32,000 nucleotides of DNA from Amycolatopsis sp. CA-128772 (GTDB lineage Bacteria; Actinomycetota; Actinomycetes; Mycobacteriales; Pseudonocardiaceae): NCBI RefSeq assembly GCF_002904295.1, contig NZ_PPHG01000085.1:22047-54046 (forward strand), read 5' to 3'. The translations under genes and the position numbers were made by a program. The notes under the pieces were generated by a model, which worked only from the letters and a program-made list of their open reading frames with translations, was not told the DNA's origin and did not search any database. Below, piece after piece: positions 15,495-16,391 of the stretch (position 1 is the first letter of the stretch; each line of letters opens with the position of its first letter).

Positions 15495-16391
15495 ATGGCC
15501 AAGCCAAGCCGCCCGATCATCGCATTCATGAGCGACCTCGGGATCACCGACGATTCCGTGGCCCAGTGCAAAGGGCTGATGCTCAGCGTCTGCCCCGACG
15601 TCACGATCGTCGACGTCTGCCACACCATGAAACCCTGGGACGTCGAAGAAGGCGCCCGCTACATCGTCGACCTGCCGCGGTTGTTCCCCGAAGGCACGGT
15701 GTTCGCCACCACCACCTACCCGGCGACCGGCACCACCACCCGGTCCGTGGCGCTGCGGATCAAGCAGGCCGCCAAGGGCGGGGCGCGCGGCCAGTGGGCC
15801 GGTTCCGGCGCCGGGTTCGAACGCGCCGAAGGTTCCTACATCTACATCGCCCCCAACAACGGCCTGCTCACCTCGGTCATCGAGGAGCACGGGTACGTCG
15901 AGGCGTACGAGGTCAGTTCCACCGAGGTGATCCCGGAACAGCCGGAGCCGACCTTCTACAGCCGCGAAATGGTGGCGCTGCCCTCGGCGCACCTGGCGGC
16001 CGGGTTCCCGCTGGAGAAGGTCGGCCGGCCGCTGGCCGACGACGAGATCGTCCGGTTCGAGCGGGCCAAGCCCGCCCAGAACGACGACGGCGAACTCGTC
16101 GGCGTCGTCACGGCGATCGACCACCCCTTCGGCAACGTGTGGACCAACATCCACCGCGAGGACCTCGAAAAGCTCGGGGCCGGCTACGGCACGCGGCTGC
16201 GGATCACGCTCGACGAGGTGCTGCCGTTCGACCTGCCGCTGAGCCCGACCTTCGCCGACGCCGGGCCGATCGGCACCCCGGTGGCGTACCTGTCCAGCCG
16301 CGGCTACCTCGCGCTGGCCCGCAACGCCGCGAGCCTCGCCTACCCGTACAACCTCAACGCAGGGATCTCCGTCCGCGTCGTGGCCGCCTGA
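15495..16391 (+). CDS. flA: fluorinase (5'-fluoro-5'-deoxyadenosine synthase; SAM:fluoride adenosyltransferase)
   Basis: 298 aa, collinear along its full length with the S. cattleya FlA sequence as I recall it. Shared blocks include [141 protein letters not shown], and [16 protein letters not shown]. It contains the fluorinase-specific loop insertion (residues ~90-113, nt 15762-15833) that chlorinase SalL and DUF62 hydroxide adenosyltransferases lack. Confidence 0.93.

Follow-up and report, generated by a model that had tools for sequence, protein, structure and literature searches.

Fam (FlA-CA12), the published fluorinase of Amycolatopsis sp. CA-128772, and its fl-type gene cluster

To our knowledge, fluorinases are the sole enzymes known to make stable carbon-fluorine bonds. 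By a count made in 2025, 16 natural fluorinases have been characterised (PMC12080486), and because they are so few, a genuinely new one would serve both biocatalysis and 18F labelling. The subject of this report is a fluorinase gene, flA, in a stretch of 32,000 nucleotides (nt) from Amycolatopsis sp. CA-128772 (contig NZ_PPHG01000085.1, positions 22,047 to 54,046 of the forward strand), the whole of which is referred to here as the window. A preliminary description, made from the sequence without database searches, had read the open reading frame (ORF) at 15495..16391 (+) as a bona fide fluorinase. The analysis reported here leaves very little doubt that this ORF encodes the S-adenosyl-L-methionine (SAM)-dependent fluorinase of this strain that has been published as Fam or FlA-CA12.

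Fam was described as the protein WP_103354124.1 on contig PPHG01000085.1, with a length of 298 amino acids (aa) and 83% identity to FlA, the fluorinase of Streptomyces cattleya (Feng et al., 2022; PMC9234330). When expressed in Escherichia coli, Fam converted SAM and potassium fluoride to 5'-fluoro-5'-deoxyadenosine (5'-FDA), as shown by high-performance liquid chromatography (HPLC) and HPLC-mass spectrometry (PMC9234330). The HPLC assay of 5'-FDA formation that the preliminary description had proposed as a check was therefore already in the literature, with a positive result. At 50 °C, a Km of 77 µM and a kcat of 0.171 per min were reported, and a Fam variant without residues 91-112 was expressed as protein with undetectable activity (PMC9234330). 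By the table of that study, the double mutant T72A/S164G has a kcat/Km of 7.2 per mM per min as against 2.2 for Fam (about 3-fold higher; the authors' text says 2.2-fold). The same enzyme was named FlA-CA12 by Pardo et al. (2022; PMC9173684), and a mutant of Fam has been displayed on the surface of E. coli (PMC8555313). Known fluorinases have a reported kcat below 1 per min (PMC9173684), and the preliminary description had called them very slow. Fam falls within this range; its kinetics are thus ordinary for the family and the problem of fluorinase slowness remains. Fam already belongs to the characterised set, and both improved mutants and a version for surface display have been made.

Assignment of the enzyme and its identity with Fam

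The flA ORF (5'-fluoro-5'-deoxyadenosine synthase, EC 2.5.1.63) runs unbroken from an ATG at 15495 to a stop codon at 16389-16391 and comprises 298 codons plus the stop. Its guanine-cytosine (GC) content at third codon positions (GC3) is 0.92, and the GC content by codon position is typical of a genuine gene in surrounding DNA of about 72% GC. Every sequence block quoted in the preliminary description was found at a definite position in the protein: FMSDLG (aa 11-16), CHTMKPW (aa 42-48), PWDV (aa 47-50), a 12-residue block (aa 73-84), PTFYSREM (aa 152-159), HPFGNVWTN (aa 210-218), SRGYL (aa 268-272) and ARN (aa 275-277). The stated difference between CHTMKPW here and CHSMTPW in FlA was correct by alignment.

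The family assignment rests on several comparisons. TIGR04507, the NCBI equivalog model for fluorinases, was matched over profile positions 1-285 of 286 with 593.7 bits (E = 5.4e-179), about 194 bits above its cut-off of 400 bits. The best match among solved structures was the S. cattleya fluorinase (PDB 1RQP, E = 6.5e-164), followed by the fluorinases 5LMZ and 5B6I (E ~5e-157). In a global alignment with wild-type FlA, 246 of 296 aligned positions (83.1%) were identical; the 50 substitutions are spread over the length of the protein and leave every active-site residue that was checked unchanged.

All 20 of the active-site, ion-binding and beta3-beta4 loop residues checked in this alignment are conserved. 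In the numbering of the window protein these are D14, D19, W48, T73, Y75, P76, A77, T78, F154, Y155, S156, D209, F212, N214, F253, S268, R269, R276, N277 and A278, and their FlA equivalents are D16, D21, W50, T75, Y77, P78, A79, T80, F156, Y157, S158, D210, F213, N215, F254, S269, R270, R277, N278 and A279. The fluoride site, defined as FlA Thr80, Phe156, Tyr157 and Ser158 (PMC12080486; PMC9234330), is intact as T78, F154, Y155 and S156. The SAM-binding residues (FlA D16, D21, N215, S269, R270, R277 and A279) are likewise intact as D14, D19, N214, S268, R269, R276 and A278. The beta3-beta4 'ion egress' residues T80, T82, R85 and S86 of FlA are kept as T78, T80, R83 and S84.

Fluorinases are homologous to chlorinases, and FlA itself has been shown to be able to chlorinate (PMC9173684). 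The window protein could on these grounds be a SalL-like adenosyl-chloride synthase, and SalL-type structures were indeed matched with E values of 1e-48 to 1e-50. These matches are far below those to fluorinases, and other DUF62 proteins matched at 1e-26 or weaker. Identity to chlorinase-like and DUF62-like relatives was about 37-42%, as against 83% to FlA, and both fluoride-binding residues, S156 and T78, are present. A SalL-type protein would have no loop and SalL as its closest relative; here the loop is present, SalL is matched at E ~1e-48 as against 1e-164 for FlA, and the coordinates of the PDB matches place 23-24 extra residues in the window protein before aa 112 relative to SalL. In the comparison with FlA that the preliminary description had proposed, the loop and the fluoride-binding Ser and Thr were conserved. 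The published measurement of 5'-FDA formation (PMC9234330) already refutes a chlorinase, and the probability of one is negligible.

Another reading takes the protein for a SAM hydroxide adenosyltransferase or (R)-SAM hydrolase of the generic DUF62 type. Its support lies in the Pfam result, which gives only the generic domains SAM_HAT_N and SAM_HAT_C, and in weak matches to (R)-SAM hydrolase models of NCBIfam. The scores on those models were 91.9 and 57.1 bits, where 350 and 470 are required, while the fluorinase model was exceeded by the wide margin given above, and the gene has a fluorothreonine transaldolase close by within an fl cluster. A generic DUF62 enzyme is accordingly extremely improbable. 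Both of these readings were rejected on the structure matches, the NCBIfam scores and the alignment of the loop. The call of a bona fide fluorinase was borne out by the model score, the identity to FlA, the 20 conserved residues and the published 5'-FDA activity.

The correspondence with Fam is equally close. The exact 298-aa sequence is already in NCBI, where the protein is named adenosyl-fluoride synthase, and residues 12-298 are identical to WP_199199433.1 (287 aa), the record that has taken the place of WP_103354124.1, from Amycolatopsis sp. CA-128772. Residues T72 and S164 and the loop 91-112 of published Fam fit the numbering of the window protein, and the S164G primer of Feng et al. encodes LP[G]AHLAAGF, in agreement with the window sequence (PMC9234330). 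Table S2 of the same study gives sizes of 292 (FlB5), 480 (FlI5), 464 (FlH5), 225 (FlG5), 220 (FlL5) and 191 aa (FlF5), and lists FlJ5 as '342'. With Fam itself, eight gene sizes agree between this table and the window: 292, 480, 298, 464, 225, 220 and 191 aa, and 342 nt.

The preliminary description had also called the enzyme a distinct natural variant, with implied novelty for biocatalysis. The variant is distinct in the sense that it carries 50 scattered substitutions relative to FlA, and the closest cluster representative beyond the strain's own models is 90-95% identical, both of which would be compatible with a previously uncharacterised enzyme. The exact sequence is in NCBI, and at least two papers have characterised and engineered the protein, which a third study listed among its candidates. 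It is therefore next to impossible that this fluorinase was undiscovered. The window fluorinase is already known, having been cloned, assayed and engineered in papers of 2021-2022; the call was correct but, for this reason, not new. The enzyme had been correctly identified from the raw sequence, and the whole 4-fluorothreonine arm of the pathway was shown beside flA; the practical value of the result is small.

The loop and the start codon

The stretch at 15762..15833 (+), aa 90-113, contains the loop of about 23 residues that is typical of actinomycete fluorinases. Its 24 residues are identical to FlA 92-115, as had been proposed. When the ten next-best representatives of a 50%-identity library were aligned with the window protein and FlA, the loop was present in the latter two and in none of the ten. 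Among the 120 closest clusters at 90% identity, the loop pattern was matched in 105; of the remaining 15, ten were read by eye and have the loop in altered form, with substitutions of the W-to-L kind, and the lengths of the other five are compatible with it. Nine of the 120 carry the 24-mer unchanged.

The loop had been described as fluorinase-only. This holds in so far as it is absent from the aligned chlorinase-like and DUF62-like relatives, but the archaeal fluorinase FlA-PtaU1 (Fme) lacks it. FlA-PtaU1 is active without the loop and has the highest turnover among the fluorinases compared by Pardo et al., who state that the loop is non-essential for activity on fluoride (PMC9173684). Because this loop-less enzyme is active, the loop is not universally needed; it marks the clade of actinomycete fluorinases well and is not a general requirement for fluorination.

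The representative of the window protein's own 50%-identity cluster (P0129; 307 aa, 66% identical) is also without the 23-residue loop. It keeps the equivalents of T80, F156 and S158 (FlA numbering) and may be a near relative of conventional fluorinases that has no loop.

Two different starts have been given to the gene. The RefSeq model (WP_199199433.1) begins at M12 (nt 15528) and omits the conserved RPIIAF strand (aa 6-11). This is part of the beta-strand SRPIIAF at the N-terminus (aa 5-11; 15507..15527, +), which aligns with residues 7-13 of the FlA crystal-structure sequence. A Shine-Dalgarno-like GAGGAG (15482..15487, +) can be read 7 nt 5' of the ATG at 15495, and the same pairing, GGGAG/GAGGAG and then ATGGCC, is kept in three other Amycolatopsis loci. 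When the sequence ahead of M12 was read, no Shine-Dalgarno-like site was seen, and the match to the Pfam SAM_HAT_N profile begins at aa 9, ahead of M12. An Actinoplanes fluorinase that lacked this beta-strand showed activity only once the strand had been added to it (PMC12080486). The ATG at 15495 is thus better supported than the RefSeq start, because of the Shine-Dalgarno-like site, the conservation across species and the published rescue of a related enzyme. A gene ordered from the 287-aa RefSeq record could give a weak or dead enzyme. Among the 120 closest database models, 17 start at MSDLG, which suggests that the truncation is recurrent among these models.

The fl cluster, its possible regulation and the proposed pathway

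The flA gene is located in a canonical fluoroacetate/4-fluorothreonine (fl-type) cluster. Linkage of flA to flB, flI, flH and flG has been reported as conserved across all actinomycete clusters (PMC9173684), and the same genes, with a flG-like gene, lie together in the window within 12705-20668. On the minus strand, flB (12705..13583) encodes a 292-aa 5'-FDA phosphorylase of the MTAP family (PF01048, E = 2e-44; TIGR01694, 301.9 bits, cut-off 274.85) of the size of FlB5. Upstream of flA, flI (13830..15272, +) encodes a 480-aa S-adenosylhomocysteine (SAH) hydrolase (PF05221, E = 2.8e-141; size of FlI5). Downstream, flH (16425..17819, +) encodes a 464-aa member of the cation/H+ antiporter family (PF00999, E = 5e-40; size of FlH5).

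These are followed by metK (~18086..19273, +), a SAM synthetase gene with three S-AdoMet_synt domains and a predicted start at GTG 18086 behind a GGGAGG; SAM synthetase genes are commonly reported in actinomycete fl clusters (PMC9173684). The adjacent apt (19277..19846, +) encodes an adenine phosphoribosyltransferase (NF002636, 171.2 bits, cut-off 125), and a homologue is present in 12 of 19 related loci. Two LuxR-type response regulators with Response_reg and GerE domains come next, a FlG-like protein of 225 aa (19991..20668, +; size of FlG5) and a second of 220 aa (20906..21568, +; size of the FlL5 entry). A flJ-like gene (21568..21909, +) encodes a DUF190 protein of 113 aa (PF02641, E = 6.5e-24); its 342 nt show that the '342' given for FlJ5 is a nucleotide length.

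The isomerase and 4-fluorothreonine transaldolase genes are both present beside flA, and each product scores above its model cut-off. The flIso gene (22951..23973, -; predicted start) encodes an MtnA-family isomerase (TIGR00512, 369.5 bits, cut-off 279; PF01008) for 5-fluoro-5-deoxyribose 1-phosphate (5-FDRP), and flFT (24141..26000, +) encodes the 619-aa transaldolase (equivalog TIGR04506, 991.4 bits, cut-off 650; SHMT and Aldolase_II domains). They are flanked by an FthC-like exporter of the EamA family (21917..22882, -; PF00892, E = 6.8e-29; predicted start), for which 4-fluorothreonine export has been proposed (PMC9173684), and by a YbaK/tRNA-editing domain protein (26002..26574, -; PF04073, E = 1.2e-19; start uncertain) resembling the fluorothreonyl-tRNA deacylase FthB, a role likewise taken from PMC9173684. 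FthB-like homologues are found in the related loci L001 (94%), L003 (77%) and L015 (65%). A helix-turn-helix (XRE) and cupin regulator of 191 aa (27048..27623, +; HTH_31/HTH_3/Cupin_2) has the size of FlF5.

In a tblastn comparison with 19 related genome loci, flA was found together with flB, flI, flH, metK, apt and the regulators in many actinomycetes, and many of the loci are syntenic over the core of the cluster. Genes of the fluorothreonine arm occur, all or some of them, also in A. melonis, Amycolatopsis sp. H20-H5 (L003), Nocardia brasiliensis and Streptomyces iconiensis. This arrangement has already been drawn for actinomycete clusters (PMC9173684).

The chemistry of the window enzyme can be carried over from structures and mutagenesis of FlA through the conserved residues, and the roles of its neighbours from their family membership. 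D14 would bind the ribose hydroxyls of SAM, which residues of the C-terminal domain would also hold. S156 and T78, beside F154 and Y155, would keep a desolvated fluoride aligned with C5' of SAM, and SN2 attack of fluoride on this carbon would release L-methionine and 5'-FDA. Phosphorolysis of 5'-FDA by FlB would then give 5-FDRP and adenine, the MtnA-type isomerase would convert 5-FDRP to 5-fluoro-5-deoxyribulose 1-phosphate (5-FDRulP), and an aldolase encoded elsewhere would yield fluoroacetaldehyde. From fluoroacetaldehyde and threonine, the transaldolase would form 4-fluorothreonine. The SAH hydrolase would clear the inhibitor SAH, MetK would supply or regenerate SAM, and Apt would salvage the adenine that FlB sets free. 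Protection of the producer would fall to the EamA exporter and the YbaK-like deacylase.

This picture has limits. The identity with Fam is established by protein sequence and gene architecture, not by DNA identity. A flK thioesterase domain was found in none of the 28 window ORFs scanned, and family scans found no genes for a fuculose-phosphate-type aldolase or an aldehyde dehydrogenase in the window. No report of fluorometabolite production by strain CA-128772 itself was found, and activity of the cluster in vivo is something we infer. A flK gene may be located at another place in the genome, and membership of the cluster type does not depend on it. The assignment as a fluorinase, which is backed by sequence, gene context and published biochemistry, is contradicted by no evidence. 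The window also contains no CrcB gene, and an Rfam scan of its whole length returned neither a fluoride riboswitch nor any other RNA family.

The 222-nt spacer between flI and flA may contain regulatory elements. The GC content of the kilobase that holds it falls to 66%. A terminator-like hairpin follows flI (15289..15319, +), with a 12-bp stem of 11 G-C pairs and a T-rich tail, identified only as a match to the consensus. A second terminator-like hairpin lies in the same spacer at 15396-15411. These two hairpins suggest that flA is transcribed separately from flI; the region has as many terminator-like sites as are expected from shuffling. A scan around flA found no sigma-70-type promoter sites.

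About 130 nt upstream of flA is a conserved block, ACTGCGACCATCCGC (15352..15366, +). In the window and three other Amycolatopsis fl loci (L001-L003), 14 of its 15 positions are invariant in a spacer that has otherwise diverged, and it was not found upstream of flA in the other 16 loci. Its 12-nt core occurs only in those Amycolatopsis loci and has one exact copy in the window. With up to two mismatches, the core has 4 matches in the window against 3.6 expected, i.e., no significant second copy. One of the two-mismatch copies, CCTACGACCATC (13718-13729, -), lies in the divergent flB-flI spacer facing flB and is indistinguishable from chance. From its conservation, the ACTGCGACCATCCGC block may be a promoter element or an operator for a regulator.

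Downstream of flB by 138 nt and on the same strand is a gene for a TehB/TPMT-like SAM-dependent methyltransferase of 206 aa (11946-12566, -), which within the flanks fetched is common only to the close relative A. melonis. A speculative and unlikely scenario would make CA-128772, a lichen isolate, an unrecognised producer of 4-fluorothreonine, with ACTGCGACCATCCGC as the operator of the two LuxR-type regulators and the methyltransferase acting on a product of the pathway. If true, it would open a way to study what turns fluorometabolite synthesis on, or point to a new methylated fluorometabolite.

Several other features were observed in the window. The interval from the FthB-like gene to the HTH-cupin regulator holds a small ORF of up to 137 aa (26561-26974, -) with coding-like GC3, which matched no Pfam or NCBIfam model and has a counterpart that is 56% identical in Amycolatopsis sp. 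H20-H5. A gene unrelated to the fluorinase (8051-10543, -) codes for a terpene cyclase with two domains, ~725-830 aa long. The NCBIfam model that it matches best, NF041168 ('family 2 encapsulin nanocompartment cargo protein terpene cyclase'), gave 1159.5 bits, slightly below the cut-off of 1200, and our guess would be an enzyme of the geosmin-synthase type. A plus-strand ORF at 28052-28732 (226 aa, GC3 0.98, no family match) was rejected as a gene. It overlaps a minus-strand gene at 27649-29304 that encodes ricin-type lectin and F5/8 type C domains, and is most likely an antisense shadow of the kind typical of high-GC DNA.

Comparison with known systems

Among the more distant relatives, SalL of Salinispora tropica (2Q6I, 6RYZ) shares the two-domain SAM_HAT fold family and SN2 attack of a halide on SAM. 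It differs in being without the 23-24 residue loop, in its match at E ~1e-48 and in being reportedly unable to use fluoride. FlA-PtaU1 (Fme) of Methanosaeta sp. PtaU1.Bin055 is, like the window enzyme, an experimentally active fluorinase; it is loop-less, shares about 50% identity with FlA and has the higher turnover.

FlA of S. cattleya (1RQP; Q70GK9) is of the same length class and, as described above, shares 83.1% identity, the identical loop and all the catalytic and ion-binding residues checked. Besides its 50 substitutions, the window protein has an N-terminus shorter by 2 residues and a small indel at about aa 190-200. The two clusters follow the same logic of flB, flI, flH, flG and flJ. 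The window cluster differs in having metK, apt, flIso, flFT and the fthB-like and fthC-like genes by flA and no flK in the window.

The fluorinases of Amycolatopsis melonis NEAU-NG30, A. bartoniae and Amycolatopsis sp. H20-H5 are 90-95% identical to the window protein. The best locus in a collection of species-representative genomes is that of A. melonis (95%), whose neighbourhood is common to the window almost in its entirety, from a TetR gene to the FthB-like gene. In A. bartoniae, no homologue of the EamA, isomerase, transaldolase or FthB-like genes was found within the 10 kb compared on either side, in agreement with the report that this species has fdr-type genes instead (PMC9173684). The closest system remains Fam (FlA-CA12) itself. 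Its current RefSeq model has an N-terminus 11 residues shorter than the window protein; with no difference detected otherwise, Fam and the window protein are the same in length, in residues 12-298, in identity to FlA, in residue numbering and in the sizes of the neighbouring genes.

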